Part shown: positions 8,322-37,180 of the stretch, in pieces
Layout of the letters: every line of letters begins with the position of its first letter
Position numbering within the stretch: position 1 is the stretch's first letter
The notes under the pieces: model-generated
The model's input: only the letters and a program-made list of their open reading frames with translations
Told to the model about the DNA's origin: nothing
The model's database searches: none
Made by a program: the position numbers and the translations under genes
Source: an uncultured virus (IMG/VR IMGVR_UViG_3300008050_000020)
Lineage: Duplodnaviria > Heunggongvirae > Uroviricota > Caudoviricetes
Direction: 5' to 3' (one strand)
Virus record (IMG/VR): IMGVR_UViG_3300008050_000020
Length of the DNA stretch: 64,000 nucleotides

Positions 8322-8616
8322 CAAGCTTCGTCGCTTCACTTCGATCACGCAGTCGGGTGTGGCACTTGTCGATGACGAGAGTCTACGCGATACCCTCATT
8401 GATCTTCACAACTACGCAGCAATGGCAGTCATTCTGATGGATGAGACTGCTGTCGACGCCGAAGACTTGGGTCCCGAATCAACGGACTTTGAAGATGCGT
8501 TTGACGATTTGCTTGACACGCTATCTTGTGAGACCTCTTCGCCAGTTGACGATCGCGATATGCTTTCGAAGACTTGTGACGCCTTTGATCAGATGATCCA
8601 GAATGGTGAGGACTGA
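8185..8616 (+). CDS. DUF1599 / nucleotide-modification-associated domain 1-like protein
   Basis: KKNQDYG, RLGDKLRR, ESLRDTLIDLHNYA motifs; GGAG before ATG 8185. Confidence 0.75.
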   Translation: MSKLSRPSQLRAVQNESFLLFKKKNQDYGDAFADFGPVGVLVRLGDKLRRFTSITQSGVALVDDESLRDTLIDLHNYAAMAVILMDETAVDAEDLGPESTDFEDAFDDLLDTLSCETSSPVDDRDMLSKTCDAFDQMIQNGED

Positions 8617-8639
8617 TGCCTGAAAGACCGATCCCTTAG
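8616..8639 (+). pseudogene. Probable orphaned original 5' end of fpg (ATG CCT GAA = MPE)
   Basis: TGATG-coupled start with GAGG RBS encoding MPE, the Fpg N-terminus; the same CCTGAA recurs at 9302-9307 after the endonuclease. Confidence 0.55.
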
Positions 8640-8666
8640 GCATAGTTACTTCTTGACGGAGTAACA

Positions 8667-9290
8667 ATGAAGCATGTCATTTATTTGACAACGAATTTGG
8701 CCAATGGAAAGAAGTACATCGGTCGTTGTTCAAAGATGGATCGATGGGAGGCTGGGTACTTAGGCTCTGGTACCCTCCTCAAGAAGGCAATTAAAAAGTA
8801 CGGAAGAGATTCTTTTGAGAGAGAGATTCTCGAAGTTGTTGAAGGTTCTCTTCGAGAAGCTATCGATTCTGAGTGTGCCTGGCTTGCTAAAATGAACGTT
8901 GTTGAGGATTCTACGTTCTACAATATGTCCAGCAATGCAGGTGGCTTCGGTGTCGGAGATACTCACAGTGTCGAGACTAAGAAGAGACTATCAGATGCCA
9001 TGAAGCATTATGCTATCGACGGTTTGCCATTGTCGCATCGTGAAAATGTTGTCAATGCTCTTAAAGGTCGAACACCCTGGAACAAGGGATATCGAATGAC
9101 TGTGGCTGAAAAGCAAGAGCTTCGCTTAAAGCGACGAAAGGGCATCAAACTGTCGATATCTGACGTTGAAGACATTAGAGAGCGATACGATTCGGGTGAA
9201 TCGGCATCTCGTATTGCAGCAAGCTATAACGCGTCACATCACACGATTTTGAAGGTCGTGAGAAAAATAGGAAAGTACAATGACATGTGA
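8667..9290 (+). CDS. Free-standing GIY-YIG (Seg-like) homing endonuclease
   Basis: VIYLTTNLANGKKYIG, YLGSG, FYN motifs; NUMOD3-like HSVETKKRLS; C-terminal HTH-like segment; AT-richer than flanks. Confidence 0.88.
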   Translation: MKHVIYLTTNLANGKKYIGRCSKMDRWEAGYLGSGTLLKKAIKKYGRDSFEREILEVVEGSLREAIDSECAWLAKMNVVEDSTFYNMSSNAGGFGVGDTHSVETKKRLSDAMKHYAIDGLPLSHRENVVNALKGRTPWNKGYRMTVAEKQELRLKRRKGIKLSISDVEDIRERYDSGESASRIAASYNASHHTILKVVRKIGKYNDM

Positions 9291-9298
9291 GGTGTATC

Positions 9299-10129
9299 AT
9301 TCCTGAAGCTCCAGAAGTTCGGACAATCGTGAATGGGCTTCAGAAGATCATCGAGGGCCGCGACCTCGTTCGAGTCCAGATTCTTGGAGGGCGTTTCACA
9401 AAGACACCACCAAAGGGCTGGACAGACTTCAAGAATGCTCTTGGCATCGGCCCTCTCAAGGTCGAGAAGGTCGGTTGCAAGGGGAAGTTCATTTACTGGG
9501 AGTTCGAAGAAGGCTGGTCGATGTGGTGCTCTCTTGCAATGACGGGGCGATGGACCCGGACAAGAGAGAAGCATGCCGCGATTCGTTTTTTGCACGTCAA
9601 AAATGGACCCACATCGACCCCTTCACCGGCACAGCGAGCGTTGTACTTTGACGACATGCGTCATCAGGGCAGCATTAGATTCGTTGAGGGCAAGGAGCTT
9701 CTAGAAAAGCGTCTGTCACAACTCGGCGTCGACATGCTCCAGGAAGACCCGGGACCCGAATTATTCAAGGCCCTCATTCAGAAGAAGCCTGATCAGCAAA
9801 TCACGAAGGTGCTGATGAATCAAAAGCTGATTGCTGGAGTGGGAAACTACATCAAGGCAGATGCTCTTTATCTTTCAAAGATCTCGCCGCACCGAACAGC
9901 AGGCAGTCTTACAGATAGCGAGCTTGTAGCTCTTCGAGAGTCAATTCGATCGGTCATGCTAGTCAGCTACGAAATGGGTGGTCATGCAATTCGTGACTAT
10001 GCTGCTGACGGTCTTGGGTACGAGTCACCTTGTTACGGTCGCAAGGCTGACGAACACGGTAATGCTATCGTCAAAGAGAAGACTGATGACGGGCGAACTA
10101 CTCACTGGTGCCCTAGCATTCAAGTCTGA
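9299..10129 (+). CDS. fpg: Formamidopyrimidine-DNA glycosylase / Nei family; probable ATT start
   Basis: PEAPEV N-terminus, GKFI, LAMTG, LMNQKLIAGVGNYIK (H2TH), GRTTHWCP; GAGGTG RBS precedes ATT-CCT-GAA. Confidence 0.88.
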   Translation: MPEAPEVRTIVNGLQKIIEGRDLVRVQILGGRFTKTPPKGWTDFKNALGIGPLKVEKVGCKGKFIYWEFEEGWSMWCSLAMTGRWTRTREKHAAIRFLHVKNGPTSTPSPAQRALYFDDMRHQGSIRFVEGKELLEKRLSQLGVDMLQEDPGPELFKALIQKKPDQQITKVLMNQKLIAGVGNYIKADALYLSKISPHRTAGSLTDSELVALRESIRSVMLVSYEMGGHAIRDYAADGLGYESPCYGRKADEHGNAIVKEKTDDGRTTHWCPSIQV

Positions 10130-10177
10130 AACACGCCCACAGAGGCGTAGTATGATAAAGCATTCACGGAGGACCTA

Positions 10178-10426
10178 ATGTCTCAGACCCCACTTACTCT
10201 CTCGGATGAAGCTATCGGCCAGGTGGCTCGGCTTCTGCAGCTTGCAATGCTGTCCGGCACCGACGTCATCGATCACATGCGAATGCTTCAGTTCGCCGAT
10301 GACGGTCATTCAAATCTCGTCATGACTGATGACTACAAGGAGATGTTCGAGCAGCAGCTTGCCACAATGGAAGCCCGACTCACCGAAGCTCTCCAGGCAT
10401 CTCTGCCCGTCGCTCCGGAAGCTTAA
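10178..10426 (+). CDS. Hypothetical protein
   Basis: GGAGG RBS; coupled to next gene. Confidence 0.65.
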   Translation: MSQTPLTLSDEAIGQVARLLQLAMLSGTDVIDHMRMLQFADDGHSNLVMTDDYKEMFEQQLATMEARLTEALQASLPVAPEA

Positions 10427-12262: not shown

Positions 12263-13252
12263 ATGCCACAGAATAATGACCTGGAACCGGTCACTTTTCC
12301 CATGGAGCTTCGTTTCAACGAGGCGCCAACCACAAGCTTCAAGAATGATCTGGAGGCCATCAACGTTGAGTTGCTAGACTTCCCTGATCCGGAACGAGCT
12401 CGTCGGATGGTTTATCAGTTCATCAACGCTACATGGGAAGATAAGCCAGGGCTTCATGATCCTGACGATGTTCCTGAGTGGAAGTGGTACGAAGCCCTCG
12501 AGCTGGCTCTGAACTTCAAGGCGCTTCCAACAGTCATGGAGACTTTGGACTTCACTTTCCGAATTGAGGGCATCGACCTCCAGGCTGTTACGCACCTGAT
12601 TCGACACCGGACCTTCTCTTTTAGTGCGCAATGCACTGGAGACCGTTGGCAGACGCATTCGAATGCCGTTGTCCCAGGGCCCGTCCAGAACAGCCCTGCG
12701 CTTTACGCGCGGTGGAAGAAGCATGTCGAGGATGCTAAGCAGCTCTACTGCGACATGATCGACACGCGCAAGATTTCCATCATGGATGCTCGGACGATTC
12801 TTCCGCGAGCCATCGAGACTCACTACTACGCTCGATGCAATCTCAAGGACATGCTCAACTTCCTTCGCCAGCGCTTTGACAAGCAGATTCAGCCTACGAC
12901 TGATAACGTCATTGCCTATCAGATGTTCCTAGCAGTTGCACGTCTCTTCCCTGAGATTGTGACTTGTATCAATCCCCATGCAGCATCTCGCCACTATGTT
13001 GCGACTGCACGGACGGGCAAGGCTACAAATCTCTACTGGCCCGATGCTGACAGCGACAAGTTCGAGTGGAACTCGGCGGATTTCATCTATCAGTGTGAGC
13101 GTGATGAGGTCAACGGAACAGATCCCGTCCTCGGTGCCCGAGAGAACTTCAAGTTCACTGAGCTGATGGAGAAGTACGATGCTGAGGTCACCGAAATCCG
13201 AGACAGTTACAACGGGTTCAAGGAGACCTCAGGCTGGACTGAGTCCAGCTGA
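12263..13252 (+). CDS. Divergent ThyX-like flavin-dependent enzyme
   Basis: FTFRIEGI..VTHLIRHRTFSFSAQC and DARTILP motifs; Cys at the position of the RHRx7S serine. Confidence 0.75.
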   Translation: MPQNNDLEPVTFPMELRFNEAPTTSFKNDLEAINVELLDFPDPERARRMVYQFINATWEDKPGLHDPDDVPEWKWYEALELALNFKALPTVMETLDFTFRIEGIDLQAVTHLIRHRTFSFSAQCTGDRWQTHSNAVVPGPVQNSPALYARWKKHVEDAKQLYCDMIDTRKISIMDARTILPRAIETHYYARCNLKDMLNFLRQRFDKQIQPTTDNVIAYQMFLAVARLFPEIVTCINPHAASRHYVATARTGKATNLYWPDADSDKFEWNSADFIYQCERDEVNGTDPVLGARENFKFTELMEKYDAEVTEIRDSYNGFKETSGWTESS

Positions 13253-16930: not shown

Positions 16931-17910
16931 AGATCACAAAGAACACGATTCAGAAGATCATCAAGGAAGAGTTGACACGAGCTTTGAAAGTGCGTGCGAC
17001 ACTTAATGAATCTGAGGTCGATGCATTTGAGCTTGGGTACGAGGATGCTACATCCGGTGTTCCCCCGCAGGGCGACAGTCAAGAGTACTACGACGGCTAC
17101 AATGATTCTCGGTTGACGATGGGAGAGCCTCCTGTTCCGTTTAAGCCTGAGCCTGCTGGTCCTGCTAAGCGTCTTGATCCCGATCTTTTGCAGTTCGCAA
17201 GGGCATACCCAAAGAGAAAGATGGGTGAGGCCAACGAATCGGGCCAGCGTGATCTTAGCAGCTATGAGTATGCTGGGTACATGTCAGTCCTTCGCCCTGA
17301 TCAATTCGGCGGCGCTGTGCCAAGGCGGGGAACTCCTGAGTACGATGCTTTCATGAAGGGCTGGGACGCCGCCAAGGCCGATCAGCAGAACAACCTTGAA
17401 GAAGATGATGGAGCTCTCGACGGCGCCGCCTTTGATGGCTGGACTGACGATCAGGCACAGCGAACATACCGAAGCATGGGTGGTGACTTCGACAAGGTGG
17501 TGGACAAGGCAGACGATTTTGCTGACGACCCGCATGCTTATGCCGCCACTCTCCAGAAGAAGGCAACGGGAAAGTGGCCGACTGAAGAAGCTGATGACTT
17601 TGGTGAAATGCCCGAACTCTCAGAAGAGGATGAGGCAGAGCCTCGTCACTTGCAACTCGTGCCCGATGAGCCGCAGGAGTCAGAGTCTGTTACCGCGCAG
17701 CTTAGTGGTGATCCTGACGGCGACATGGAGGGTTACGAGTCTCCTGAAGAACTGGCCTCTCTCTACGCTGACTTTGAAGAAGAAGGTCTGACGCCGGGCG
17801 AAGAAGCAGAAGACGCAGCACGCTATCAAGATAACTGGCGTGAGTTCACTCGACAGGGCAAGCACCTAAGTGTTGTCGAACAGCGCCTCCTCCGCTTCTT
17901 CCAGAGCTGA
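16927..17910 (+). CDS. Acidic protein with N-terminal MKITKNTIQKIIKEE tag
   Basis: Shared tag; several LxE sites. Confidence 0.7.
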   Translation: MKITKNTIQKIIKEELTRALKVRATLNESEVDAFELGYEDATSGVPPQGDSQEYYDGYNDSRLTMGEPPVPFKPEPAGPAKRLDPDLLQFARAYPKRKMGEANESGQRDLSSYEYAGYMSVLRPDQFGGAVPRRGTPEYDAFMKGWDAAKADQQNNLEEDDGALDGAAFDGWTDDQAQRTYRSMGGDFDKVVDKADDFADDPHAYAATLQKKATGKWPTEEADDFGEMPELSEEDEAEPRHLQLVPDEPQESESVTAQLSGDPDGDMEGYESPEELASLYADFEEEGLTPGEEAEDAARYQDNWREFTRQGKHLSVVEQRLLRFFQS

Positions 17911-18458
17911 TGGAGAAGATCGGGGCAGGCACATTCAGAATTGTCTATGCCTATCCTAGTGATCCTGAGAGCTTAGCAGTTAAGGTGCCAAGAGCCGAAG
18001 TCCGACGACACGGCCGCACAATGAACAGCGAAGAGATCAAGTCTCATCGTTTGTTTCCGGAGATCTTTCCCCGGACGCATAATGACAACTTAGATCAGTT
18101 GGTTGTCGACAGAGCTGACATTATCGCCACTCCCGATGATTTGATGCGAGCTGTTCCAGAGCTCACACGTCTTAGCACTATGCAGACACAGGGCTCTATC
18201 TGGGATCTCTTTCGAGCACTTATTGGTGTAGCCTTGAACCGCTTGAGCCCCGGGGACGTAGAGCAAGAATTTGGTATTCCCGGTCGATTGACAAAGTCTG
18301 TAGTTAAAAAGTCACGTCTTCTGAGCACAATAGCGTCAGCTGTTGACACTCTTAATATCGACGTAACTGATATTGACCGAGGTAACATCGGCGTATCCAG
18401 AAGTACAAAAAAGTTTGTTCTGGTTGATGCTAGTACGCTGGCTGGTTTTTCGGGCTAG
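17910..18458 (+). CDS. Minimal protein-kinase-like fold protein
   Basis: IGAGTFRIVY (Gly loop), AVKV, DIDRGNIG (catalytic-loop-like), VLVD. Confidence 0.6.
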   Translation: MEKIGAGTFRIVYAYPSDPESLAVKVPRAEVRRHGRTMNSEEIKSHRLFPEIFPRTHNDNLDQLVVDRADIIATPDDLMRAVPELTRLSTMQTQGSIWDLFRALIGVALNRLSPGDVEQEFGIPGRLTKSVVKKSRLLSTIASAVDTLNIDVTDIDRGNIGVSRSTKKFVLVDASTLAGFSG

Positions 18459-18523
18459 AGGTTCTAAGGGTCTCGAGACACCTATGTAAGAGTGATGACC
18501 CACCTACCTGGTCAAACAACCAA

Positions 18524-18895
18524 ATGGAACTTAATCTACGCCAGAGCTGCTTCTCTCAACAGGCCTACGCCCTAGAGAGTGTCGATTTTCAACTTGCGAG
18601 AGCGATCCGCAATCTGCGGGTTCTCGCAGGTGCGCACATTGAGCTTCTAAGCATCAAGCGACCGCCCGAAGAAGACTTCGAAGACGACGTTGCTTACATT
18701 ACAGTTGATGGAGAGCTCGATACGCTCTGGCGAGACTGGTCAGACTCTCGTGAAGACGTTTTCTGGCTCGAAAATCACAATTTCTCGGGTAAAATCGTCG
18801 AAATTGCTCGATTTTTGACTCCTGAGGCCGCGGAAGAGCCCACGGGTGATGATTTTTTACCCAAAGTTGTGAAAAAGAGACCTCAAAAGAGGTAA
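18524..18895 (+). CDS. Hypothetical protein
   Basis: ORF in gene string. Confidence 0.45.
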   Translation: MELNLRQSCFSQQAYALESVDFQLARAIRNLRVLAGAHIELLSIKRPPEEDFEDDVAYITVDGELDTLWRDWSDSREDVFWLENHNFSGKIVEIARFLTPEAAEEPTGDDFLPKVVKKRPQKR

Positions 18896-18904
18896 AATGA
18901 CAGC

Positions 18905-27085: not shown

Positions 27086-27086
27086 G

Positions 27087-27869
27087 ATGACTGTAAAATA
27101 CACAGGTAGCAAGAAGTGGCTGACGAAGGTCTTGCGTCCCATTGACGAAGTCTACGAGCCTTTCTGCGGATCGGGAGTAGTCTCTTTCGAGAAGAGCAAG
27201 GTTTGTCACTTGAATGACCAGCTCGAGCCTCTCATTGCGGTTTACAAGCGTCTGCAGATTGACAAGGAGAGCTTCATCAAGGAGCTTCTCGCAGAGGTTG
27301 AGGGAATCAAGTCAGCCTCGAATTCGTCAGCTGCGTATTACGACGCACGTGCCAGATACAATGCTGGCGGGATGTCAGATCCCGTTCTCTTCTGCGTCAT
27401 CATCTACTTGGGATTCAATGGACTCTATCGAGTCGGTCCCAACGGGTGCAACGTTCCTTACGGTGGAGACTCTCGACGATTCAATCCTAAGGGCTTGATG
27501 GAGATTCCCGTCGAGAAGATTGCAACGCTGACTTGCGGATCTTGGGATGCCACAGCAGTCCCAAATGAAGACTGCACCATCTACGTTGATCCGCCCTACG
27601 CAACGACCTTCACGGGGTACACGAGAAAGGGGTGGGCGCATGCAGACAACGTGCAGCTCTTTGGTTGGCTAGCTGAGCAGCCCAATCCCGTTTTGATCTC
27701 ATGTCTAAGAACTGAAGACAACGAGCAGCTGCTGACCGACTTGAACTTCGACTTCGTCTCGATGGACAAGGTCTTCAGCAATGGTGCGAAGTCTGTCAAG
27801 AAGGGCGAGATTCTGGCATTCAACGACCGAGCTGTTCCTCATATTCTCTTTCGTCAGGTTCGACGATGA
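27087..27869 (+). CDS. dam: DNA adenine methyltransferase (Dam/D12 class)
   Basis: KYTGSK, YEPFCGSG, LND, GFNGLYR, YVDPPY. Confidence 0.88.
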   Translation: MTVKYTGSKKWLTKVLRPIDEVYEPFCGSGVVSFEKSKVCHLNDQLEPLIAVYKRLQIDKESFIKELLAEVEGIKSASNSSAAYYDARARYNAGGMSDPVLFCVIIYLGFNGLYRVGPNGCNVPYGGDSRRFNPKGLMEIPVEKIATLTCGSWDATAVPNEDCTIYVDPPYATTFTGYTRKGWAHADNVQLFGWLAEQPNPVLISCLRTEDNEQLLTDLNFDFVSMDKVFSNGAKSVKKGEILAFNDRAVPHILFRQVRR

Positions 27870-28066
27870 GAATTGAGCCCAACGTTCGAGACAAAGTGAT
27901 TTGGCGGAAAGACTATGATCATCCGCACTTCAGTCATTGGCTGCCCGGCGTTGTAATTGCACGAATCGGTTATGATCTGCTTGTCAGGTGTGCTGATGAT
28001 AAACTCCGAGACATTCCCGATTCGTGGCTGGCAGTGAAGAATGATTCATCTGAGAATAATCGATGA
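27866..28066 (+). CDS. Hypothetical protein
   Basis: ATGA-coupled ORF. Confidence 0.5.
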   Translation: MRIEPNVRDKVIWRKDYDHPHFSHWLPGVVIARIGYDLLVRCADDKLRDIPDSWLAVKNDSSENNR

Positions 28067-28293
28067 AGGCGGGCGGCATAGTCACCCTAGACGATCATGA
28101 CTGGTTCCCTGCTTTGATCATTGAGCTGAAAGCCGAGACAGCATTCCCTTCAAGTTCCCAGATTGTTCACTTCGACGTCTTGACTGTCTTGTGCCCAGAT
28201 CAGGAGATTCGCACCATTAACTCAGTAGAATATCACGGCATGAGATACCATCCACCCGCAGATCATCTGTACACTGGCAGCCAAAATGAGTAA
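28063..28293 (+). CDS. Hypothetical protein
   Basis: ATGA-coupled ORF. Confidence 0.5.
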   Translation: MKAGGIVTLDDHDWFPALIIELKAETAFPSSSQIVHFDVLTVLCPDQEIRTINSVEYHGMRYHPPADHLYTGSQNE

Positions 28294-28302
28294 GGTTGCA
28301 GC

Positions 28303-28728
28303 ATGAACGAGATTAAGGGCTTTTTCGAAGACTTTCGCTTCCTCAGCAACTTCTGGTATGCTGATGTTGTCTTCGAGGGCGTAACATACCGAAGCACTGA
28401 GGTTGCTTACCAAGCAGCCAAGTCTTTGGATCTTGACGAGCGCAAGAAGTTCGTCGGCCTAACGTCAGGTCAGGCAAAGCGCCTGGGGCAGAAGATTCAG
28501 CTTCGTGAAGACTGGGACTTCATTCGTCTGCAAGTTATGTACGACATTTGCAAAGACAAGTTTACCCGACATGCAGATCTCAAGGAGTTGCTGCTCTTGA
28601 CTGGTGACGCTTATCTCGAAGAAACAAACACCTGGAATGACACGTTCTGGGGAGTATGTGCAGCCGCCGGGGAAAACAATCTGGGCAAGACCCTCATGAA
28701 GATTCGAGAGGAAATTCTGAATGCATGA
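28303..28728 (+). CDS. NADAR (YbiA-like) family protein
   Basis: FLSNFW, STEVAYQAAK, KF..H.DL, DTFWG, GENNLGKTLMKIR. Confidence 0.9.
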   Translation: MNEIKGFFEDFRFLSNFWYADVVFEGVTYRSTEVAYQAAKSLDLDERKKFVGLTSGQAKRLGQKIQLREDWDFIRLQVMYDICKDKFTRHADLKELLLLTGDAYLEETNTWNDTFWGVCAAAGENNLGKTLMKIREEILNA

Positions 28729-29002
28729 TTTCGCTGAAGCGATGGCTGTCGAAAAGTTTATGATCGACCCTGGCACATGGGTTGAGCATCTCGACAAGAT
28801 CCCGCCCCGTGGCCGACAAATCATTGAGCAAGAAATGGCTGAGCCATCTGGCCCGACAGGGCTTGCTCTCGTTCCCGACAAGGGCTACGCTGTCCTCATG
28901 TCTGGGCAAGGTCCATTCATTTGCTGGGCAGAGTGGCGTGACAGCCACGACATTGTGACATTTCCAGTGTCTGAGCCCTCCAACGATCCTATCAATTGGT
29001 GA
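28721..29002 (+). CDS. Hypothetical protein
   Basis: Overlapping ORF with RBS. Confidence 0.5.
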   Translation: MHDFAEAMAVEKFMIDPGTWVEHLDKIPPRGRQIIEQEMAEPSGPTGLALVPDKGYAVLMSGQGPFICWAEWRDSHDIVTFPVSEPSNDPINW

Positions 29003-29006
29003 CCCG

Positions 29007-29519
29007 ATGATCACATACGTTCAGGGTGATTTGATTACGTCCGACTGCGACGTCATTGCCCACGGGTGTAACTGCTTCAACACTTGGGGCGCAGGTATTG
29101 CTCGCCAGCTTCGCACAGTTCACACTGAGGCCTTCGAAGCTGACTGGAAGACTCTGCGCGGCGACAAGGACAAGTTGGGCACATATACTGACGCTGTCTC
29201 GCATGGTCGACGAGTATTCAATCTGTATACGCAGTATGCCTACGGAAACAATACACGCCACTGTGACTACGATGCAATCAAATCGTCTCTCGAGTCAATG
29301 CGAGATGCTCTCAGAGTCACGGACGAAATCGAAGGAGCTAAGATCGGTCTTCCCAAGATTGGGTGCGGACTAGCAGGTGGAGATTGGAACGTCGTTGAAG
29401 GCATCATCGAAGAAGTCTTTTCGGGCATTGACATCTACGTCTATGTTCTAGACGACGGATCCATTGAAGCAGCACGCGCAGCAGGCGCACGAATCCAGGC
29501 GGCAATCCAGAATGCCTGA
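29007..29519 (+). CDS. Macrodomain protein (DarG/TARG1-like class)
   Basis: GDL..IAHGCNC..GAGIA, FNLYTQ, PKIGCGLAGGDW. Confidence 0.9.
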   Translation: MITYVQGDLITSDCDVIAHGCNCFNTWGAGIARQLRTVHTEAFEADWKTLRGDKDKLGTYTDAVSHGRRVFNLYTQYAYGNNTRHCDYDAIKSSLESMRDALRVTDEIEGAKIGLPKIGCGLAGGDWNVVEGIIEEVFSGIDIYVYVLDDGSIEAARAAGARIQAAIQNA

Positions 29520-29733
29520 TGGATCAGAAATCATTCGGGAAGTCACGTATTCCCGAGAAGAGCATTCCCGAGGCTCTGCCTGGATGTTCACATTGGGTGA
29601 CAATTCCGACATCCCTCAGTCTCATTGGCGAAAAGAGCATGACTCTACCGTTTGGCGATGGGTTGCATTGAAAACGTGTCATTACCGGGGCTGTTCAACA
29701 TGCCATCCCGAGGTCAAAAGTGAAAGTATCTAG
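29512..29733 (+). CDS. Hypothetical protein with C-terminal Cys motif
   Basis: CHYRGCSTCH. Confidence 0.45.
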   Translation: MPDGSEIIREVTYSREEHSRGSAWMFTLGDNSDIPQSHWRKEHDSTVWRWVALKTCHYRGCSTCHPEVKSESI

Positions 29734-30151
29734 TCTTCGAAAGATTCTCAAGCGGACAGGAGCCTCGATCATCGAGATTGATGATGTTGCGACTACAGTC
29801 CCACGACATCAGTTTCGCCTCTGTACTCGAGGAGAGATTATGTCAGCTGTCGCAAAGACAATGAAGTCTTTCCTCGTCGATGCTTACGGCAATGAGAACA
29901 AGGCGGATGAAAAAGAGTCCAAGTTCTCTGCCGTCATCCTGGGCTCTGAGTATTTTGACGACGCAGCAGACATCAAAGTGCGATTCGCGCGAAAGAAGAT
30001 TCTGGTCTGTGAATGTGAGGATCCATCTGCTGACAGTAGAACAACCAGACGCTTTAAGCTGCGAGTAGCTGTTTTTGGTGAATCACCCAATTGGGGACCC
30101 CGTAGAATGTGGAAAGACGCAGATTGCGACAATGACGAGATTCCGTTCTAA
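29720..30151 (+). CDS. Hypothetical protein, paralogue of 37388-37798
   Basis: LRKILKRTGASIIEID vs LRRVLGGTGAEVIEID. Confidence 0.6.
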   Translation: MKVSSLRKILKRTGASIIEIDDVATTVPRHQFRLCTRGEIMSAVAKTMKSFLVDAYGNENKADEKESKFSAVILGSEYFDDAADIKVRFARKKILVCECEDPSADSRTTRRFKLRVAVFGESPNWGPRRMWKDADCDNDEIPF

Positions 30152-30157
30152 GGCAGT

Positions 30158-30208
30158 ATGATTACATTCCCCACAAACCATCTGATCCTTGAGGGTCCTG
30201 ATCTCTCT
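30158..30208 (+). pseudogene. Orphaned original 5' end of the dNMP kinase gene
   Basis: MITFPTNHLILEGPD vs MITFPTNHLVIEGPD at 31088: 13/15 aa and 36/45 nt identical. Confidence 0.88.
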
Positions 30209-30242
30209 GAATCTTGCTTGATATGTACAACTAGGAGATATT

Positions 30243-31091
30243 ATGTTCTACCGAGAGTACGTGTGTGAGCACTGCGGAAAAGCGGGCAAGAAATCGGTAA
30301 GACATCGGTACCAGACAAAGCGAACTCAGAGATTTTGTGACCGTGCTTGCAGTAACAAGTGGATGCATAAGAATGGAGTCCTCAAGTCTGCGGGCAGAGA
30401 CAATCCGATGTATGGAAAATCAGTCAAAGAGCACTGGATAGAGAGGCACGGTAAAGAAAAAGCTCAAAAGCTTATCGCTCAACGTCGTGCTAGACAAGAG
30501 GCAGGAAGCGCTGGCGCAAACAACGGAATGTATGGTAAGGAGCATAGCGAGAAATCCAAACGTGCAATCTCTGAGTTTCGTGCAGGAAAAACGCTTGAAG
30601 AGCTCTGGGGCGAGGAGAGAGCAAAAGAATACAAATCTGAGTTGTCTGTTCGAATGTCTGGTTCTGGTAATCATATGTTTGGTAAAACTTCGACGGGCGG
30701 TCGCTCGATCAAAGGCACATACAAAGGCTTCTTTTTTAGAAGCCTTCTCGAGTATTCTTTCATGCGGCATCTCGAAGAGCAAGGTCATCCGCTAGACACT
30801 GTCGATTACGAGACAGTTCGCATTCGTGTCAGCGACAACATGACATACAAGCCCGACTTCTTCGTTCCTGCGACGCAGATTCTTTATGAGGTCAAGCCCG
30901 CGTACGCCGTCGCCCGAGAGGAGAATGTGATCAAGTTCACAGCAGCGAAGCATTATTGCAAAGAGCAAGGATGGACGTTCAAGGTGGTAACCGAGAATGA
31001 TTTCCGGAAGATTTCGTTTGCTGAAGCTGAGGAAGACGACGGCGTCGTCTTCGATGAACGAACGCTAAGCTATTTTAAGAGGACATCATGA
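30243..31091 (+). CDS. Free-standing homing endonuclease: Zn finger, NUMOD3-like repeats, TnsA-like PD-(D/E)XK domain
   Basis: CEHC..FCDRAC; NPMYGK/NGMYGK/NHMFGK; FRSLLE, YKPDF, LYEVK. Confidence 0.85.
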   Translation: MFYREYVCEHCGKAGKKSVRHRYQTKRTQRFCDRACSNKWMHKNGVLKSAGRDNPMYGKSVKEHWIERHGKEKAQKLIAQRRARQEAGSAGANNGMYGKEHSEKSKRAISEFRAGKTLEELWGEERAKEYKSELSVRMSGSGNHMFGKTSTGGRSIKGTYKGFFFRSLLEYSFMRHLEEQGHPLDTVDYETVRIRVSDNMTYKPDFFVPATQILYEVKPAYAVAREENVIKFTAAKHYCKEQGWTFKVVTENDFRKISFAEAEEDDGVVFDERTLSYFKRTS

Positions 31092-32038
31092 TTACGTTTC
31101 CGACAAACCATCTTGTCATTGAAGGGCCAGATTGTGCGGGGAAGACTACGCTCTACAGAGGCCTTCATAAGGCATCAGGATTCAGGTGGAACATCCTGGA
31201 CAGATCATTTCTGTCCATGCTTGTCTACGCCAAGATGTACAGTCGCGACACTGGCCTCCACGCCCAGGGTCTCTGGTCCGAGCTAACCAACATGAACAAC
31301 CGATTCGTGCTAATGCTCCCGAGCTATGCAGCAGTTGTTGAGCGATACAAGGTTCGAGGCGACGACATTCAGAACGAGCATACCCTCGAGAAGGTTGTAG
31401 ACCTCTTCGGCGACCACGACTGGCTTAGCTCGTTTCCCAACGTTACGCTGCTGGACAATTCTGATGTGGGACTCTCTGCGCTTGAAGACGATGTTGACCA
31501 GATTGTAGGCTGGCTTAAGACAAAGGAAGAGTACTCCATCGACGACATCGCAAGTGAGGTCGCTCGTTTCGTCTCTGTCATGCCCAACGGTTCAGTGGAC
31601 GACATGCGCGGGTACGAGACACCCATCAGCCTCACCTTCTACGACGACGGCGCCTTCGATGAAGGGCAAGACGCTTCCGAGATTTTTGCAGACGAAGAAG
31701 AGGGTGCTTACTATCAAGGCATCTACAACAGACTCATTGACAAGATTGGTGCTGAGCTGGAGGGAGACAATCCTTACAACGAAAAGCAGACTGTGAAGTC
31801 TCGACGCTTCGTTTATACAGACGACTCTTGCATCTCGTTCATCCAGATTCTCAATCGTGATGGCATCATGGACTTTCACGCAGTCCTCAGATCAACGAAC
31901 GTGGCCAAGACTTTCCGCAAGGACCTCAACTTTCTCTACTGGCTCGCTGAGTCTGTCCAGAAGAAGTTTCCCGAGCTTTCGTCTGTTAGGTCCACGCGAT
32001 TTCGGGTGCAAATGAACTCTGCTCACCTGGTGCGGTAG
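31088..32038 (+). CDS. dNMP (thymidylate-like) kinase fused to a thymidylate-synthase-like domain
   Basis: EGPDCAGKTT P-loop, LDR..S..VY; C-terminal SRR..SCISFIQ..HAVLRSTN..NSAH resembles a ThyA-fold core. Confidence 0.72.
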   Translation: MITFPTNHLVIEGPDCAGKTTLYRGLHKASGFRWNILDRSFLSMLVYAKMYSRDTGLHAQGLWSELTNMNNRFVLMLPSYAAVVERYKVRGDDIQNEHTLEKVVDLFGDHDWLSSFPNVTLLDNSDVGLSALEDDVDQIVGWLKTKEEYSIDDIASEVARFVSVMPNGSVDDMRGYETPISLTFYDDGAFDEGQDASEIFADEEEGAYYQGIYNRLIDKIGAELEGDNPYNEKQTVKSRRFVYTDDSCISFIQILNRDGIMDFHAVLRSTNVAKTFRKDLNFLYWLAESVQKKFPELSSVRSTRFRVQMNSAHLVR

Positions 32039-32167
32039 AGTTAAGCACAACGATTGAAGAGATTAAGGGATACGAAGAGACTTCTCGTGTAGCAGGCAAA
32101 AAGCTGGCACTTGCCCAATACTGTGAGTCTCGAGACTATCAGTGGAAGTGGTGGCCAGCAGAAGAGT

Positions 32168-32196
32168 TTGAACGGGAAGTCCGAGAGCAGTATAAT
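32168..32196 (+). promoter_or_regulatory. Sigma70-type promoter
   Basis: TTGAAC-17 nt-TATAAT upstream of the epimerase gene. Confidence 0.75.
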
Positions 32197-32227
32197 GCTT
32201 CTATCGCAACCCTCAGGAGACGAGAAT

Positions 32228-33244
32228 ATGAGTAGACGCTGTTTGGTCACGGGAGGCGCTGGGTTCATCGGTTCAAATCTGGTCAAGCGACTAGTTGCCG
32301 AAGGCTGGGATGTCGATGTCGTAGATGATCTGTCCTCTGGGCGACTTGATCTGTTGAGTGGCGTGACAGTCGCAGACGGCTTCATCAACGGAGCGGGTGA
32401 AGATGCAGATGTTCTGTTTCTACAGGTCGACTTTACTAATCAGCATGTTCTGAATCGCGTTCGTGCCAGTCGCTATGACGTCATTTTCCATCAGGCTGCT
32501 GTCCCTCGAGTTTCTTACTCTGTTGAAGAGCCCATTGAGACGATGGAGACGAATCTTCTGGGAACTGTCAAGCTCTTCAAAGCCGCTGCTGATGGGAATA
32601 CTCCCGTCGTCTGGGCGTCATCAAGCTCAGTTTACGGAGGGGCTCTCCTTCGTCCCACGTCAGAACAGATGAGAGGCGAGATTCTTCCCAAGTCGCCATA
32701 CGCGATGCAGAAGTACCACTGCGAGGACTATGCTGCTCTCTTCGGAAGTCTCTACGGGCTCAGGAGCATCGGCCTCAGATACTTCAATGTTTTCGGCCCA
32801 GGACAGTACGGTGACTCAGCCTACGCAACCGCCGTCTCTGCTTGGTGCCATGCTATCAAGGAGGGCGATGAGTGTCGCAGCGACGGGGATGGCGAACAGA
32901 CTCGTGACATGTGTTACATCGACAACGTCGTTCAGGCTAATCTCAAGGCAGCTAATGCACTTTTGAATGAGCTCGACTGGCAAGTTTATGGCACTCATGG
33001 ACTTTGTCTCAACGTAGCATGCGGTGATTTCGTTTCAAACAACGAGATTCTAGAGTTTCTCAAGACTCGATTTGGCGATCGAGTCAAGGTTAAGCATGCG
33101 CCTGAGCGAGCAGGAGACGTTAAGCATACACTGGCTGATCTCAGCGAAATCGAAACTCTGCTTGGCTATGCAGTCGAAGTTCGATTTTGGGATGGCCTTG
33201 AGAAGACTCTCGCTTGGTGGGGATTGATGAATGACGAAGACTAA
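32228..33244 (+). CDS. NAD-dependent NDP-sugar epimerase (GalE/WbpP-like)
   Basis: LVTGGAGFIGS, HQAA, ASSSSVYG, SPYAMQK, LRYFNVFGP, GEQTRD. Confidence 0.92.
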   Translation: MSRRCLVTGGAGFIGSNLVKRLVAEGWDVDVVDDLSSGRLDLLSGVTVADGFINGAGEDADVLFLQVDFTNQHVLNRVRASRYDVIFHQAAVPRVSYSVEEPIETMETNLLGTVKLFKAAADGNTPVVWASSSSVYGGALLRPTSEQMRGEILPKSPYAMQKYHCEDYAALFGSLYGLRSIGLRYFNVFGPGQYGDSAYATAVSAWCHAIKEGDECRSDGDGEQTRDMCYIDNVVQANLKAANALLNELDWQVYGTHGLCLNVACGDFVSNNEILEFLKTRFGDRVKVKHAPERAGDVKHTLADLSEIETLLGYAVEVRFWDGLEKTLAWWGLMNDED

Positions 33245-33788
33245 CACCGACAAGGCGGCTCAAGATATTCTTGACCTTCTTCGCGGTGCGCCTGGTCCCT
33301 ATTTTGAGACAGAAAGCTCATTCTTCGGTAAGAAGAGAGTTGACTCATCGATGAAGGAGTCTCCCATGGAAACAGACATGGGAGGTATGATCATCACAAA
33401 AGCATCGATGACATACGGTGAAGCTGACAGTCTTGCTTCTAGCGTTGACTTAACGGGCTACCCTGCATTTGTAAGACGGCACACGCAGAGTGTGTATTGG
33501 AATTCACCCTACAACAAAAATCCGCCCCCACCTGGTCTCTTCTTCAAGGGAGACGCGTGGTGGTCGATTTACAGCTATTTGGTAACGCAAGGCGTCATCG
33601 AGGGCGATCCTAAGTCGTACAAGAATCAAATGGAGTATCTGTACAATCAGATTCTACATCGACTCGTTGAAGCAGGAGTTTGGCTCGAGGCTGTCAATGA
33701 AGACGAAAACGCGCGATGGATTGCTGAGTTTGGTGAGGTTCTGGTTGACGGCAAGTGGCGTTGGTTCAAGCTCGGTGTTTGGCCGTGA
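33231..33788 (+). CDS. Hypothetical protein
   Basis: ORF in gene string. Confidence 0.55.
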   Translation: MTKTNTDKAAQDILDLLRGAPGPYFETESSFFGKKRVDSSMKESPMETDMGGMIITKASMTYGEADSLASSVDLTGYPAFVRRHTQSVYWNSPYNKNPPPPGLFFKGDAWWSIYSYLVTQGVIEGDPKSYKNQMEYLYNQILHRLVEAGVWLEAVNEDENARWIAEFGEVLVDGKWRWFKLGVWP

Positions 33789-34096
33789 GCGAGACTCGTG
33801 TTGTCAATCTCTATAAAGAGCCTTACGACATTTACATCGGTCGACCCGGTCGAGGAGTTGACGGCTACCTCGGGAACCCGATCCTTCTCAACGAAGTCTG
33901 TCCTGTATGTTACAAGCAGCATACTGAGAAGGGTGACACGCTGCCCTGCTACAAGGTCTATCTGGAGGCCAGAGTGGCCGCAGATGAGACTTTCAGAACT
34001 CGTTTGATTAACCTCAAAGGACAAGTTCTTGGTTGCTTCTGTAAGCCCAAGAGATGTCACGGGGACATTATCGTGGAGTGGTTAAAGAATGGATAG
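33785..34096 (+). CDS. DUF4326 family protein
   Basis: YDIYIGRP..GNP, LKGQVLGCFCKPKRCHGD. Confidence 0.85.
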   Translation: MSETRVVNLYKEPYDIYIGRPGRGVDGYLGNPILLNEVCPVCYKQHTEKGDTLPCYKVYLEARVAADETFRTRLINLKGQVLGCFCKPKRCHGDIIVEWLKNG

Positions 34097-34580
34097 AGTT
34101 CAGCAGCTCATTGAGAACAATTTCTGGGATCTCATGATGATCTGGGATGAGTCTAAATCAGAAGAGCGAGATGCACTGCTCACACAGGCAGTTCATGCAT
34201 CAGGCCCCATTATCACGAAGATTTGCAAGCGGCTCACGTTCGATTGGGAAGCATCAGACAGTCCCGTGTATGTTGACGATGATGGTCGAAAGTTCACATG
34301 CCAGACGAGGAAGCTGGCCTCAGCGGTTGATACGACTCTTTTGGGTGACACAGACAATTTCGATGAGATTGCTGACGCTATCGCTGCTGAACTTAACGAG
34401 ATGTTTGCTGGCAAGGACGGACCGAGGAAGCCAGCATTTTTCAATATCGTCAAGGTAAACGGAATGAGAATCGTGGGTACTGGGCCGAAAAGCTCTGACT
34501 ATGAAGTGTCAAAGCTTTGCTCACTGGCAACACGATATGCTGACACAAACCCTGATTCTTGGTTGCTAAGTGACGAATAG
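34089..34580 (+). CDS. Hypothetical protein
   Basis: ORF in gene string. Confidence 0.55.
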   Translation: MDRVQQLIENNFWDLMMIWDESKSEERDALLTQAVHASGPIITKICKRLTFDWEASDSPVYVDDDGRKFTCQTRKLASAVDTTLLGDTDNFDEIADAIAAELNEMFAGKDGPRKPAFFNIVKVNGMRIVGTGPKSSDYEVSKLCSLATRYADTNPDSWLLSDE

Positions 34581-34881
34581 ACGAACATCGTGCACTGCTG
34601 CTCCTGAACGCTACGAGATCTACAACATCTTCCTGGAAACACTTGATGGCTGGAACTCTCCGGCACCACCGCTCTCTCCTAATGACGGAGCCTGGGCCGA
34701 CTGGGCGCACCCCGACGGGCATCGAGTCTGGTGGGATGGAATCAACGGACGATTTGGGTTTGTCAGAGTAGATGAATTCAATGCTGACCTTCATCATTAT
34801 GCCTCAACAGGTAGAGGATGGAAGGACAGGCTCAGACACGATCTTAAGCGAGTCATGGAAAGCAACATGAGCATGAACTAA
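34570..34881 (+). CDS. Hypothetical protein
   Basis: Overlapping ORF. Confidence 0.45.
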   Translation: MTNRRTSCTAAPERYEIYNIFLETLDGWNSPAPPLSPNDGAWADWAHPDGHRVWWDGINGRFGFVRVDEFNADLHHYASTGRGWKDRLRHDLKRVMESNMSMN

Positions 34882-35075
34882 TGAAGAAAGTTACTGTCAC
34901 GCTGCAGATCAAAGCCACAATGTGGGCTGCTGATTGGAACCCACAAGAGATGATTCAGTACTTGAAGGCATACCACGACGGCCAACATCCTGCTGGCTGG
35001 GTTCGTGATGGAATTGCTGATCAGGGATCTGATATCACTGTAACAGATACAAAAATCGAGGAAGTCGAACAATGA
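34881..35075 (+). CDS. Hypothetical protein
   Basis: TAATG-coupled ORF. Confidence 0.55.
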   Translation: MKKVTVTLQIKATMWAADWNPQEMIQYLKAYHDGQHPAGWVRDGIADQGSDITVTDTKIEEVEQ

Positions 35076-35845
35076 GTTACGAAAAGCATATTGAGCTATA
35101 CGGCGACGGCATCGGCAAGGTCGAGTACGTCGAACACATGGGCTCAGACCTCACAATCGTGAACAGTGCTCGGGTGTCGTTTGGAAGTCACAAAGACGTC
35201 CTCGACGAAAAGGACGCAAAGCTCATCAACTACCTCGTGAATCCACCTGACGGAAAGATGCATACCTCAGTCTTCGAGCACTGTGCCGTTACCTTCCGTT
35301 TCAAGGTTCCGCTCTTCATCCGTTCTCAGCATCACCGTCATCGGACCTGGTCATACAACGAGATCAGCAGGCGCTACACAGCATCAGACATTGAGTTCTA
35401 TGAGCCCGAGACTTTCCGGACGCAAGCCAAGCGCAACCGACAGGCGAGCAATGCTGAGGATCTGATTGACCCGATGATCAATGTCGAGGACGCTGATCAT
35501 CCCAAGTTTGGCGAGTGGATCCATCCGCATCCTGCTTCTCAAGCTGTTCGAGAGCATCACCAAGCTTCTCTAGATCTGTATCATCGTCTCATGGAAGTTG
35601 GTGTTTGTCGAGAGCAGGCACGAGGTGTTCTTCCGCAAAACATGTACACGACGTACTACGGCACAGTGTCGCTACTGAATGCATTGAAGTTCTGCTCTTT
35701 GCGTTTGCCCAAGGGAGCCCAGTGGGAAATTCGTCGAGTTGCTGAAGCAATGGTGACGATTCTCAAGGATCTCTATCCGATTGCTGTCGAAGCATGGATT
35801 AGCAATCTTGATGACGACGTGAAAGAACTCTTTACCGACACTTGA
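35072..35845 (+). CDS. thyX: Flavin-dependent thymidylate synthase
   Basis: ARVS, HTSVFEH, RHRTWSYNEISRRY (RHRx7S), EQARGVLP, AQWEIR. Confidence 0.95.
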   Translation: MSYEKHIELYGDGIGKVEYVEHMGSDLTIVNSARVSFGSHKDVLDEKDAKLINYLVNPPDGKMHTSVFEHCAVTFRFKVPLFIRSQHHRHRTWSYNEISRRYTASDIEFYEPETFRTQAKRNRQASNAEDLIDPMINVEDADHPKFGEWIHPHPASQAVREHHQASLDLYHRLMEVGVCREQARGVLPQNMYTTYYGTVSLLNALKFCSLRLPKGAQWEIRRVAEAMVTILKDLYPIAVEAWISNLDDDVKELFTDT

Positions 35846-35879
35846 CAGTGACATAGTTATATGTGTACACGAGGTGCAC

Positions 35880-36647
35880 GTGATTGTCGGAATTTACAAA
35901 GTTGTCATTGGGAATCAAGAGTACGTTGGTCAGTCTCGTCAAATGTCTATTCGGTGGCATCAACATCAACGACAGCTCGAAAAAGGTTCTCACGGAAACA
36001 AGTTGATGCAAGCGCAATTCGACAAAATCGGTGATGTATCATTTGCTCTTCTCGAAGAATGTAGTCTGGACAACCTGTACGAGCGAGAGATGCACTGGAT
36101 TGATGAGCTTGACACTCTTCGAAATGGTATGAATCAATCCTGGCCAGGAAATCGATGGAATTTCGAGTGGACTGACGAGATGCGTGCCAAGATGTCTGAG
36201 TCTGCAAAGCAACGCGGACGAAATGGTGGAACGTTTACATCGAACGAAGCTCTCGAGATTCGCAAAGCTTGGATGGCCGGAGAACGAGTGCTGCAGATCT
36301 CAGAGAGACTTAAGTGTCATCGAAAAGTTGTCGGGAATCTGGTCAATTTTAGATCTTATCAAGAGGACACAGCAATTCCTGCGGGATACACTGAGCACCT
36401 TAACAAGGTACAATTAGAACGAAAGCGTGGCAATCGCATCGCACAGAGAGGCTGGAAGCATTCAGCAGAATTTATTGAGAAGTTTCGTGTAGCAGTGTCA
36501 GGTCCTTGCCTTTCAAGACGTAAGCTTGATGATGTTCAGCGATGTGAGATTCGACAGAGACTTAGCAAGGGTGAGACAGGTTCGAGTCTCGCTCGAGAGT
36601 TCGGTGTGTCAAAGCAATTAATCAGCAAAATCAAGAGACTTAAGTGA
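35880..36647 (+). CDS. Free-standing GIY-YIG homing endonuclease
   Basis: GIYKV..YVGQS..RW..H, REMHWI, C-terminal HTH-like LAREFGVS. Confidence 0.85.
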   Translation: MIVGIYKVVIGNQEYVGQSRQMSIRWHQHQRQLEKGSHGNKLMQAQFDKIGDVSFALLEECSLDNLYEREMHWIDELDTLRNGMNQSWPGNRWNFEWTDEMRAKMSESAKQRGRNGGTFTSNEALEIRKAWMAGERVLQISERLKCHRKVVGNLVNFRSYQEDTAIPAGYTEHLNKVQLERKRGNRIAQRGWKHSAEFIEKFRVAVSGPCLSRRKLDDVQRCEIRQRLSKGETGSSLAREFGVSKQLISKIKRLK

Positions 36648-37042
36648 ACCGCTCCTACATCTATCAGATGATCGATGAGATCATCATTGAAGCTGAAAGC
36701 CCGAATGTGTGGGAAGAGTATGAGATCAAAGATCAGCGTGGCATGGTCGAGGTTCACTTTCCGTACTTTGACGACTTTTGTGAGTTTGTCAAGGCAGTTG
36801 AGTGTCGAGGATGGGTTGCGACTATCACGCAAGATGCTCGTCGGCTTTTGTTTGGTGTGCGTTTTGATATTCCAGCTAGTGATGATCACGAAGGCTTGAG
36901 CTTGTTCGTACCTGTCCGAAAGATGAACGCAACACTTCAAGCATTGAAAAACTCATACCCTGACGTAATCAATGAGATGAACAACTTTACTGGCGGAAAC
37001 GGAAAGCTGTGGAGAAACGTTGTTCCTCCGCGCTGGAGCTAG
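36644..37042 (+). CDS. Hypothetical protein inside the thyX endonuclease cassette
   Basis: GTGA-coupled to the endonuclease; lies before the thyX remnant. Confidence 0.55.
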   Translation: MNRSYIYQMIDEIIIEAESPNVWEEYEIKDQRGMVEVHFPYFDDFCEFVKAVECRGWVATITQDARRLLFGVRFDIPASDDHEGLSLFVPVRKMNATLQALKNSYPDVINEMNNFTGGNGKLWRNVVPPRWS

Positions 37043-37045
37043 AGC

Positions 37046-37180
37046 ATGAAGTTCATCTCGTTGCGGATCGCTCCGGGTGCACAGTGGGAAGCTCAGCAGG
37101 TCGGACTGGCCTGTCTCGAGATTGCGAAGGACCTCTGGCCCGTCGCCGTCGAAGCTTATCTCGAAGGAAAGAGCAAGTGA
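37046..37180 (+). pseudogene. Orphaned original 3' end of thyX (44 codons)
   Basis: MKFISLRIAPGAQWEAQQVGLACLEIAKDLWPVAVEAY aligns ungapped (21/38 identical) with the ThyX C-terminus LKFCSLRLPKGAQWEIRRVAEAMVTILKDLYPIAVEAW. Confidence 0.88.

Follow-up and report, generated by a model that had tools for sequence, protein, structure and literature searches.

Free-standing homing endonuclease genes beside duplicated gene ends in an uncultured marine phage: probable replacement of gene termini without splicing

We analysed 64,000 nt of DNA (the window) from IMG/VR record IMGVR_UViG_3300008050_000020, an uncultured virus of the Caudoviricetes. Three of its genes, a DNA glycosylase gene fpg/nei, a P-loop nucleotide kinase gene and thyX, each adjoin an insert with a free-standing endonuclease gene (HEG1, HEG2 and HEG3, respectively), and each insert is flanked by two versions of one end of the gene. 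One version completes the gene; the other (the orphan) stands beside the gene's old neighbour. The inserts are probably free-standing homing-endonuclease cassettes that carry a diverged copy of the gene end they severed. This interpretation is strongly supported at the kinase site, probable at the thyX site, where anything from the gene end to the whole of thyX may have come with the cassette, and plausible at the fpg site, where it requires an ATT start codon.

The three gene-end duplications had been reported in a preliminary description of this DNA, and sequence comparison confirms each of them (positions in Table 1). The self-comparison proposed there as a check also bore the description out: when the whole window was compared with itself in six frames (2861 stop-to-stop fragments, all against all), the kinase and thyX duplicates were the two strongest internal protein similarities, giving the two best non-overlapping matches (E-values of 5e-10 and 2.8e-6).

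The source is a large marine phage; the longest contig on record that encodes the kinase and thyX of the window measures 212 kb. The window is a strand-biased stretch, rich in nucleotide-metabolism genes and selfish elements. Contigs from independent sequencing runs span the junctions at 31071-31529 (HEG2-kinase), 35596-35898 (thyX-HEG3) and 36983-37295 (orf132-orphan); because they bridge these junctions, the latter are not artefacts of one assembly. Contigs of four sequencing runs were aligned to 17501-37500 at 85% likeness, and none had a joint that bypassed an insert; these contigs are short and of low depth and give no evidence either way on empty alleles.

RESULTS

Occupied and empty alleles at the kinase site

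In the window, the kinase orphan begins 7 nt past the stop codon of orf143, and the start codon of the functional kinase overlaps the HEG2 stop codon as ATGA. The orphan (30158-30202) reads MITFPTNHLILEGPD, and the functional 5' end (31088-31132) reads MITFPTNHLVIEGPD. The two ends share 13 of 15 residues, seven of these 13 being encoded by different codons, and differ at 9 of 45 nt. Residue identity combined with differing codons indicates that both copies evolved as coding sequence in separate lineages. The insertion point falls at codon 17-18, in the P-loop.

Scans with a kinase alignment returned 66 metagenome loci and 10 viral-contig loci, and the kinase 5' end was present in 69 of them. 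A HEG2 homologue lies immediately upstream of the kinase in three of the 69 loci (L034, L038 and L040) and is missing from that place in the other 66; among the 55 loci with at least 900 nt of upstream sequence three are occupied. The homologues in L040, L038 and L034 (65-68% identical) are at the same insertion site as in the window. In the empty loci L032, L033, L036, L037 and L039 a homologue of orf143 is followed by the kinase within ∼10-20 nt. The layout of L040, whose kinase is 88% identical to that of the window, is as in the window: orf143, orphan kinase start, HEG2, kinase. HEG2 is the only one of the three endonuclease genes for which presence and absence at one locus was found among close relatives, and two of the occupied/empty comparisons are between near-identical contigs.

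In the first pair, occupied L038 is 98.3% and 99.4% identical to empty L037 and L036, respectively, up to its position 3768 (...GACTTATCTGG, codon 18, the P-loop Gly codon), and 96.0% and 96.7% identical after its position 4901. The inserted block of 1.13 kb consists of 30 nt, the gene for a HEG2 homologue of 348 aa and a new copy of kinase codons 1-20. The L038 orphan is identical to the empty alleles at 45 of 45 compared nt, and at 53 of 53 nt in the run-up to the junction; the new 5' end agrees with them at 26 of 45 nt. Three mismatches stand immediately to the right of the junction; simple recombination between the two end copies of L038 would therefore not yield L036, which argues for a gain in L038. 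The L038 homologue is longer than HEG2 because its N-terminal Cys-rich module (FYRE...C..C) is present twice in tandem.

The second pair, occupied L034 and empty L035, is 99.8% identical to the left of the insert and 97.2% to the right. Flanking sequence was co-converted in both pairs: the foreign tract reaches kinase codon 20 in L038 and stops at codon 23 in L034, and on the left side of L034 a donor NADAR gene and another ORF arrived with the endonuclease gene. The recipient's own kinase 5' end was lost in L034, where a remnant of ∼20 nt resembling ...Leu-Ser-Gly is found before the endonuclease gene. By analogy with L038 and L034, the cassette-borne kinase 5' end in the window would span 31088 to ∼31150.

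All four occupied alleles (the window, L040, L038 and L034) have the endonuclease stop codon overlapping the kinase start codon (ATGA or GTGA), and a purine-rich stretch immediately precedes the overlap. Kinase codon 17 is GCG in 4/4 occupied alleles vs 2/66 empty ones (loci not de-replicated); therefore, the new end either travels with the endonuclease gene or is selected with it. Pairwise identity among the HEG2 copies is 64-68%, as compared with 89-91% among the kinases of the window, L040 and empty L032; turnover or repeated invasion fits this disparity better than one ancient insertion does.

Two proteins known from the protein sequence alone were compared with the window's kinase ends, residue matches being counted by eye. 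P0002 (80% identical overall) agrees with the orphan at 15/15 residues and with the functional copy at 13/15; P0003 is marginally nearer to the functional copy (12/15 vs 11/15 for the orphan). No relative of window positions 29000-33300 was found by DNA search among GenBank phages, and neither a single-protein scan of viral contigs with the kinase nor a scan of GTDB genomes with the kinase alignment gave a match.

Several further features of these and similar loci deserve mention. L034 has a second insertion (1090-2236, vs L035 4649-4674), a minus-strand GIY-YIG/NUMOD1 gene just upstream of a D12 methyltransferase gene; the first 11 codons of the methyltransferase gene are recoded, and no orphan is present. 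L038 differs from L036/L037 by 40 mismatches clustered in a 200-nt patch (5895-6095) inside an epimerase gene, in contigs otherwise 96-99% identical, and judging from the sequence this cluster looks like a small recombination patch. The record of Campylobacter phage CPt10 (L098, positions 57667-60642) carries the depositors' annotation of a P-loop gene that an endonuclease gene disrupts; the product of the latter is distantly similar to HEG2 (28% over 173 residues).

The thyX site

At thyX the order of elements is the mirror image of that at the kinase site: intact thyX, 28 nt, HEG3, orf132, 3 nt and the orphan, here a 3' end. The insertion point is at approximately codon 205 of 257. Aligned with thyX positions 35684-35800, the orphan has 21 of 39 residues identical and 48 of 117 nt different. 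It matches Pfam Thy1 positions 159-191 of 191 (E-value 9.6e-5; 22.7 bits, under the 24.8-bit cut-off). No Pfam or PHROG match and no usable Atlas match was found for orf132, and no family match for orf72; a single-protein scan of viral contigs detected no relative of the ORF downstream of the orphan.

Among 119 thyX homologues, 100 are nearer to the orphan, 14 are nearer to the functional end and five are tied. Searching with the orphan alone retrieved 14 full-length thyX proteins; their identity to it is 63-76%, and 70-76% in 12 of them (over 38-43 residues). Substitutions occur in the orphan where relatives are otherwise constant: it reads GAQWEA, and the relatives inspected all have GAQWEI except one with GVQWEI. 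This pattern fits relaxed constraint on the orphan.

The window has a second, divergent gene with a Thy1 domain (12263-13252; 329 aa; Thy1 positions 51-191), located 22 kb upstream of thyX.

The fpg site

Four distant fpg/nei relatives begin with (M/L)PEGPEV, encoded by ATGCCTGAAGGNCC. The consensus of their gene starts, ATGCCTGAARGNCC, has one match in the window (both strands, at most one mismatch), at position 8616, where the DUF1599 gene ends. Directly before the Pro-Glu codons of the functional fpg there is neither ATG nor GTG nor TTG. In that place there is an ATT (9299; IPEAPEV), 8 nt after the HEG1 stop codon and behind GAGGTG; fpg appears to start here, as translation would have to if Pro is to end up at the N-terminus. 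The sole canonical in-frame start, GTG at 9287, would put four residues ahead of the catalytic Pro; Fpg/Nei enzymes need an N-terminal Pro. The insertion point is at approximately codon 5. We regard fpg as a probable third case because of the position and strand of the fragment, its overlap with the stop codon of the neighbour and the ATT start, which would otherwise lack an explanation.

This arrangement is also present in L021, an independent viral contig, where the encoded proteins are 99.5-100% identical to those of the window (HEG1, 99.5%). The predicted empty allele would have the DUF1599 stop codon overlapping ATGCCTGAA... of an intact fpg. The fpg scan matched the same phage only; the DUF1599 scan gave 62 loci, none with an adjacent fpg except in the same phage; and the HEG1 scan found distant N-terminal relatives (at most 50% identity), none beside fpg.

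Table 1. Positions of the features at the three sites (window coordinates, except in the last row)
Feature	Position	Strand	Remarks
DUF1599 gene, old upstream neighbour of fpg	8185..8616	+	Pfam DUF1599 at 9.6e-10; TGA overlaps orphan ATG
Orphan fpg/nei 5' end, MPERPIP*	8616..8639	+	Likeness to fpg start limited to 8616-8629
HEG1, free-standing GIY-YIG endonuclease (SegE-like, NUMOD3, HTH)	8667..9290	+	Pfam, PHROG
fpg/nei glycosylase, 276 codons, intact	9299..10129	+	Pfam Fapy_DNA_glyco and H2TH
orf143, old upstream neighbour of kinase	29720..30151	+	tblastn: directly upstream of kinase in empty-site L032, L033, L036, L037, L039
Orphan kinase 5' end	30158..30209	+	Codons 1-15 certain; possibly extends through CTCTCTG (Leu-Ser-Gly)
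HEG2, free-standing endonuclease	30243..31091	+	Cys-rich N-terminal module, NUMOD3, TnsA-N / T7 endonuclease I-like nuclease domain
P-loop nucleotide kinase (thymidylate-kinase-like), 316 aa, intact	31088..32038	+	169 homologues
thyX, 257 codons, intact	35072..35845	+	Pfam Thy1 at 1e-45; 3' part 35684-35845 duplicates orphan
HEG3, free-standing GIY-YIG endonuclease, C-terminal HTH	35874..36647	+	Pfam, PHROG, tblastn to phage GIY-YIG homing endonuclease genes
orf132, inside insert	36644..37042	+	4-nt overlap with HEG3 stop; ends 3 nt before orphan
Orphan thyX 3' end, 44 codons	37046..37180	+	ATG at junction, GGAG 7 nt upstream
orf72, old downstream neighbour of thyX	37177..37395	+	GTG 37177 overlaps orphan stop
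HEG2 homologue of L038	3799-4845 (L038)		348 aa, vs 282 in the window

Endonucleases and absence of splicing elements

Recognised endonuclease domains are encoded in all three inserts. HEG1 matches SegE_GIY-YIG in Pfam (1.4e-7) and 'homing endonuclease' in PHROG (6.6e-31). HEG2 matches TnsA-N (4.1e-10) and NUMOD3 (3.5e-9) in Pfam and an endonuclease in PHROG, and has a weak PDB match to T7 endonuclease I (E-value 0.039). The Pfam GIY-YIG score of HEG3, 22.3 bits, is just below the cut-off of 22.6 bits; the PHROG match to homing endonuclease has an E-value of 5.2e-16.

As the preliminary description had maintained, the three sites offer no room for a group I ribozyme and carry no intein motif. 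Non-coding space around each insert amounts to at most ∼40 nt per junction. Rfam gave no matches in the whole window at gathering thresholds; at E-values up to 1 no intron family was found in 29600-37500 and 8000-10200, the one weak match being to an unrelated sRNA model. No Hint or Intein_splicing domain was detected in fpg, the kinase, thyX or the three endonucleases by the same scans that detect the inteins of ribonucleotide reductase (RNR) and DnaE. No tyrosine or serine recombinase domain was found in any insert ORF (Pfam, PHROG).

Elsewhere in the window, the RNR large subunit is encoded in two ORFs (1831-3882 and 3967-5268) that are 85 nt apart with no endonuclease gene between them; the first contains an intein (Intein_splicing, residues 302-587). 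Pol III alpha is encoded in three pieces (20058-27085) with intein halves at the breaks and endonuclease genes between the pieces, at 22382-23275 (endonuclease I-like) and 24863-25831 (DUF559/Vsr-like); a 169-aa ORF (21796-22305) also lies in this region. The sequence CATAGTTA occurs four times, always in the plus strand (8641, 35852, 38341 and 62522; 0.41 expected). Its distance to the following gene is 18-20 nt at HEG1 and HEG3 and 9 nt at an ORF (62539), and it may be a phage promoter element that also drives endonuclease genes.

Recurrence in other viral contigs

At the protein level, we compared the left flank of the endonuclease gene with the right one in 74 HEG1-like loci, with 74 shuffled pairings as a control. 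Eight of the 74 loci scored above the best control (25.8 bits), and three of these (L203, L166 and L228) were inspected in detail. In L203 (2579-4994) an orphan thyA 5' end of 26 codons overlaps the stop codon of an SmpB gene. Behind this orphan come an 86-aa ORF, a GIY-YIG gene and an intact copy of thyA, and the start codon of the intact copy overlaps the endonuclease stop codon. L202, a near-duplicate of L203, gave the identical survey match. The thyA example comes from an unrelated viral contig and suggests that the end-replacement design recurs.

L228 (1906-4758) is ambiguous: two minus-strand genes, which may be paralogues or the result of an end duplication, flank a plus-strand GIY-YIG gene and have 43% similarity over 109 C-terminal residues. 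L166 was rejected as an end duplication, its repeat being the upstream region of two endonuclease copies. The survey matches in L216, L183, L181 and L205 appear weak or of low complexity.

DISCUSSION

Proposed mechanism

Beyond the anatomy of the sites, every step of the following scheme is one that we infer. A cassette would consist of an endonuclease gene with its own ribosome-binding site and a diverged copy of the short gene segment that the insertion severs; the insertion point would lie inside conserved coding sequence near the end of a gene. In the 5' type, the new segment would be fused to the endonuclease stop codon through the ATGA or GTGA overlap, with the Shine-Dalgarno sequence within the last endonuclease codons, so that the target gene would gain a new start and its first 15-23 codons. 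In the 3' type, the new segment would complete the ORF ahead of the endonuclease gene. In both types the resident terminus would remain beside its old neighbour as the orphan.

During co-infection the enzyme would cut an uninterrupted allele at or near the insertion point. Of the two broken ends, the left would pair with the donor orphan and the right with the part of the gene body that follows the new terminus, and repair synthesis would copy the endonuclease gene along with the new terminus. With little resection the recipient terminus would survive as the orphan (as in L038), and with more resection donor sequence would replace it (as in L034). We propose that the carrier is protected because all it holds of the target is a half-site (the orphan) and a recoded version (the new end). 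Such a cassette would have two advantages of an intron or intein without splicing, namely disruption of the target in the carrier and homology that begins right at the break. The cut site would coincide with the insertion site, as it does for introns and inteins, unlike in the classical intergenic arrangement. Recombination between the direct repeats could also remove the insert precisely, and should be slowed by the divergence of the repeats.

Alternative explanations

The preliminary description had proposed homing without splicing by means of a diverged copy of the gene terminus. The occupied and empty pairs bear this out at the kinase site; at thyX the closest relatives carry a functional-type end. 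It had further predicted that relatives with empty sites would match the orphan: L038 agrees over all 53 nt, thyX leans the other way, and the window's kinase is a tie, its orphan and functional copy each matching the nearest empty allele (L032) at 34/45 nt. This tie is one of several points that weigh against the cassette interpretation. Cleavage, immunity and the homology-arm role of the orphan are ones we infer for all enzymes. At fpg, the likeness of the orphan to the gene start is short, being confined to the first 14 nt (ATGCCTGAAAGACC), or five codons; fpg function appears, from its sequence, to depend on the unproven ATT start; and no relative with an empty fpg site was found in the collections searched. 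The 14-nt match could also be a matter of chance, HEG1 being an ordinary intergenic gene and fpg either starting at GTG 9287 with an inactive N-terminal extension or decaying. The expected count of consensus matches in the window is 0.13, at least one match was found in 13 of 100 shuffles, and no canonical start codon precedes the catalytic Pro. We consider this account unlikely, as the match is on the correct strand, overlaps the stop codon of the upstream gene and lies <700 nt from fpg, while the fpg ORF is intact for 276 codons and has both Pfam domains. Further contrary points concern thyX. Its closest relatives, P0122 and P0123 (both known from proteins alone; body 77% and 73% identical by BLAST), have a long end of the functional type, and their C-termini are 72-74% identical to the functional end vs 54% to the orphan. 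In the thyX proteins that most resemble the orphan, the body shares only 58-65% identity with that of the window; none of the thyX relatives compared joins a window-like body to an orphan-like end; and the single-protein scan of viral contigs found no HEG3 relative at any other thyX. This pattern may mean that the cassette is old and shared by sister phages, that HEG3 brought along a longer tract or even the whole gene, or that sampling is too thin. In an alternative history specific to this site, a whole foreign module (thyX, HEG3 and orf132) displaced a resident thyX and left its last 44 codons, with the left junction at or upstream of the thyX start. The shared nearest relatives of thyX body and functional C-terminus, the origin of the orphan in another thyX lineage and the long donor tracts, whole genes included, that were co-converted with HEG2 in L034 all agree with such a displacement. 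We nevertheless regard it as rather unlikely, for the similarity breaks exactly at the right edge of the insert, within coding sequence, and the layout mirrors that of the kinase site; besides, the identity figures rest on only 38-53 residues, and P0122 and P0123 may themselves be occupied alleles.

Two other explanations apply to all sites. The orphans might be incidental scars of mosaic recombination, with nuclease genes merely located at exchange boundaries and the terminus copies no functional part of a mobile unit. Nuclease genes at exchange boundaries have indeed been reported in ICP1 phages, according to the available text of PMC10448857, and the second GIY-YIG gene of L034, next to 11 recoded codons with no orphan, tells us that an orphan is not required. 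Scars of this kind would hardly produce a junction at the same codon in the three occupied alleles where it can be placed (the window, L038 and L034; in L040 the orphan ends ∼3 codons earlier or contains a 26-nt insert), a stop/start overlap kept in 4/4 alleles, GCG in all four cassette-borne ends as compared with 2/66 empty alleles, or the same layout at thyA in an unrelated contig, and we find this account improbable. The idea that the inserts are removed by splicing, as group I or II introns or as inteins, is extremely improbable: no Rfam intron match appears even at E-values up to 1, each junction has at most ∼40 nt outside ORFs, Hint and intein domains are missing from the three genes and the endonucleases, and splicing would leave two copies of one terminus unexplained.

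Implications

With slightly more doubt than belief, we offer a general reading of these observations: terminus replacement could be, next to introns and inteins, a third means by which homing endonucleases reside within the most conserved motifs of essential phage genes. In this reading the element duplicates and recodes the gene end that it severs, and the orphan serves as a homology arm at the break, so that cut and insertion sites coincide. The cases described here illustrate how a selfish nuclease gene can target the best-conserved and most widely shared stretch of a gene (e.g. the P-loop) without a ribozyme, protein splicing or a split protein. If the general reading is true, the host gene in the 5' version relies on the endonuclease gene for its translation, and orphaned gene ends account for many of the 'small hypothetical ORFs' next to phage endonuclease genes, each a record of the recipient allele in a past invasion. 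Orphans may then mark the recipient lineage in studies of phage recombination. For genome annotation, the end replacement described here would explain short orphan ORFs and odd start codons beside phage endonuclease genes. The model is concrete and testable; L036, L037 and L038 provide a natural set of substrates (empty allele, orphan junction and recoded end).

Comparison with known systems

The analogues named in the preliminary description, the T4 seg/mob genes and integrative elements that restore their target gene, are looser than the closest known case, C-terminal replacement by mobile ORFs (mORFs) in fungal mitochondria. The T4 seg/mob genes have in common with the present ones the nuclease families (GIY-YIG and others), free-standing genes, sporadic distribution and co-converted flanks; the second endonuclease gene of L034, beside the methyltransferase gene, has the classical seg/mob layout. 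T4-type genes are intergenic, whereas here the insertion point is within coding sequence and coincides with the presumed target. The available text of a T4 mobile-element review of 2010 (PMC2988022) describes no duplicated terminus ('duplicat' has 0 occurrences).

Aeh1 nrdA/mobE, split gene 43 and 'fractured genes' with split inteins (Dassa et al. 2009; PMC2677866, in its available part) likewise have an endonuclease gene inside a conserved phage gene with no intron, and Pol III alpha of the window has the layout of such a fractured gene as described there. In those systems both pieces are kept and reassemble or trans-splice, whereas here the small piece is redundant and the product is a single polypeptide.

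Genomic islands that integrate into tRNA or tmRNA genes use an integrase and near-identical att repeats. Like the inserts in the window, they carry a duplicate gene end and leave the target functional. The inserts differ in that they have no integrase and the two copies of the gene end are strongly diverged.

In the open-access literature, as far as its available text goes and including PMC10448857, PMC2677866, PMC2988022 and PMC8351571 (a phage pangenome tool), no account of terminus duplication by phage endonuclease genes was found. The fungal mORFs are described in PMC3630166 (citing Paquin et al. 1994), the available part of which lists Allomyces macrogynus atp6 and Glomus atp6, atp9, cox2 and nad3. 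According to that text, an endonuclease ORF interrupts a conserved gene towards its 3' end, a diverged C-terminal copy of foreign origin completes the gene, and the native C-terminus is found downstream and is the copy that matches close relatives.

The window sites have the same anatomy, the element's diverged terminus completing the ORF and the native terminus standing beside the old neighbour. At thyX of the window, the orphan is not the copy that matches the closest relatives, which are known from proteins alone. The mORFs belong to organellar genomes, and their LAGLIDADG or GIY-YIG ORFs are often fused in frame, whereas the present ORFs stand separately in a phage genome. Unlike in the mORFs, two of the three window cases replace a 5' end, the new start overlapping the endonuclease stop (kinase) or following it closely (fpg). 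Replacement of a gene terminus by a homing endonuclease is thus not a categorically new mechanism; with the present cases, a phenomenon described until now for fungal mitochondria gains a link to phage biology and is placed in phages and also at 5' ends. The 5'-end form, in which the target gene is translationally coupled to the endonuclease gene, appears to be new.

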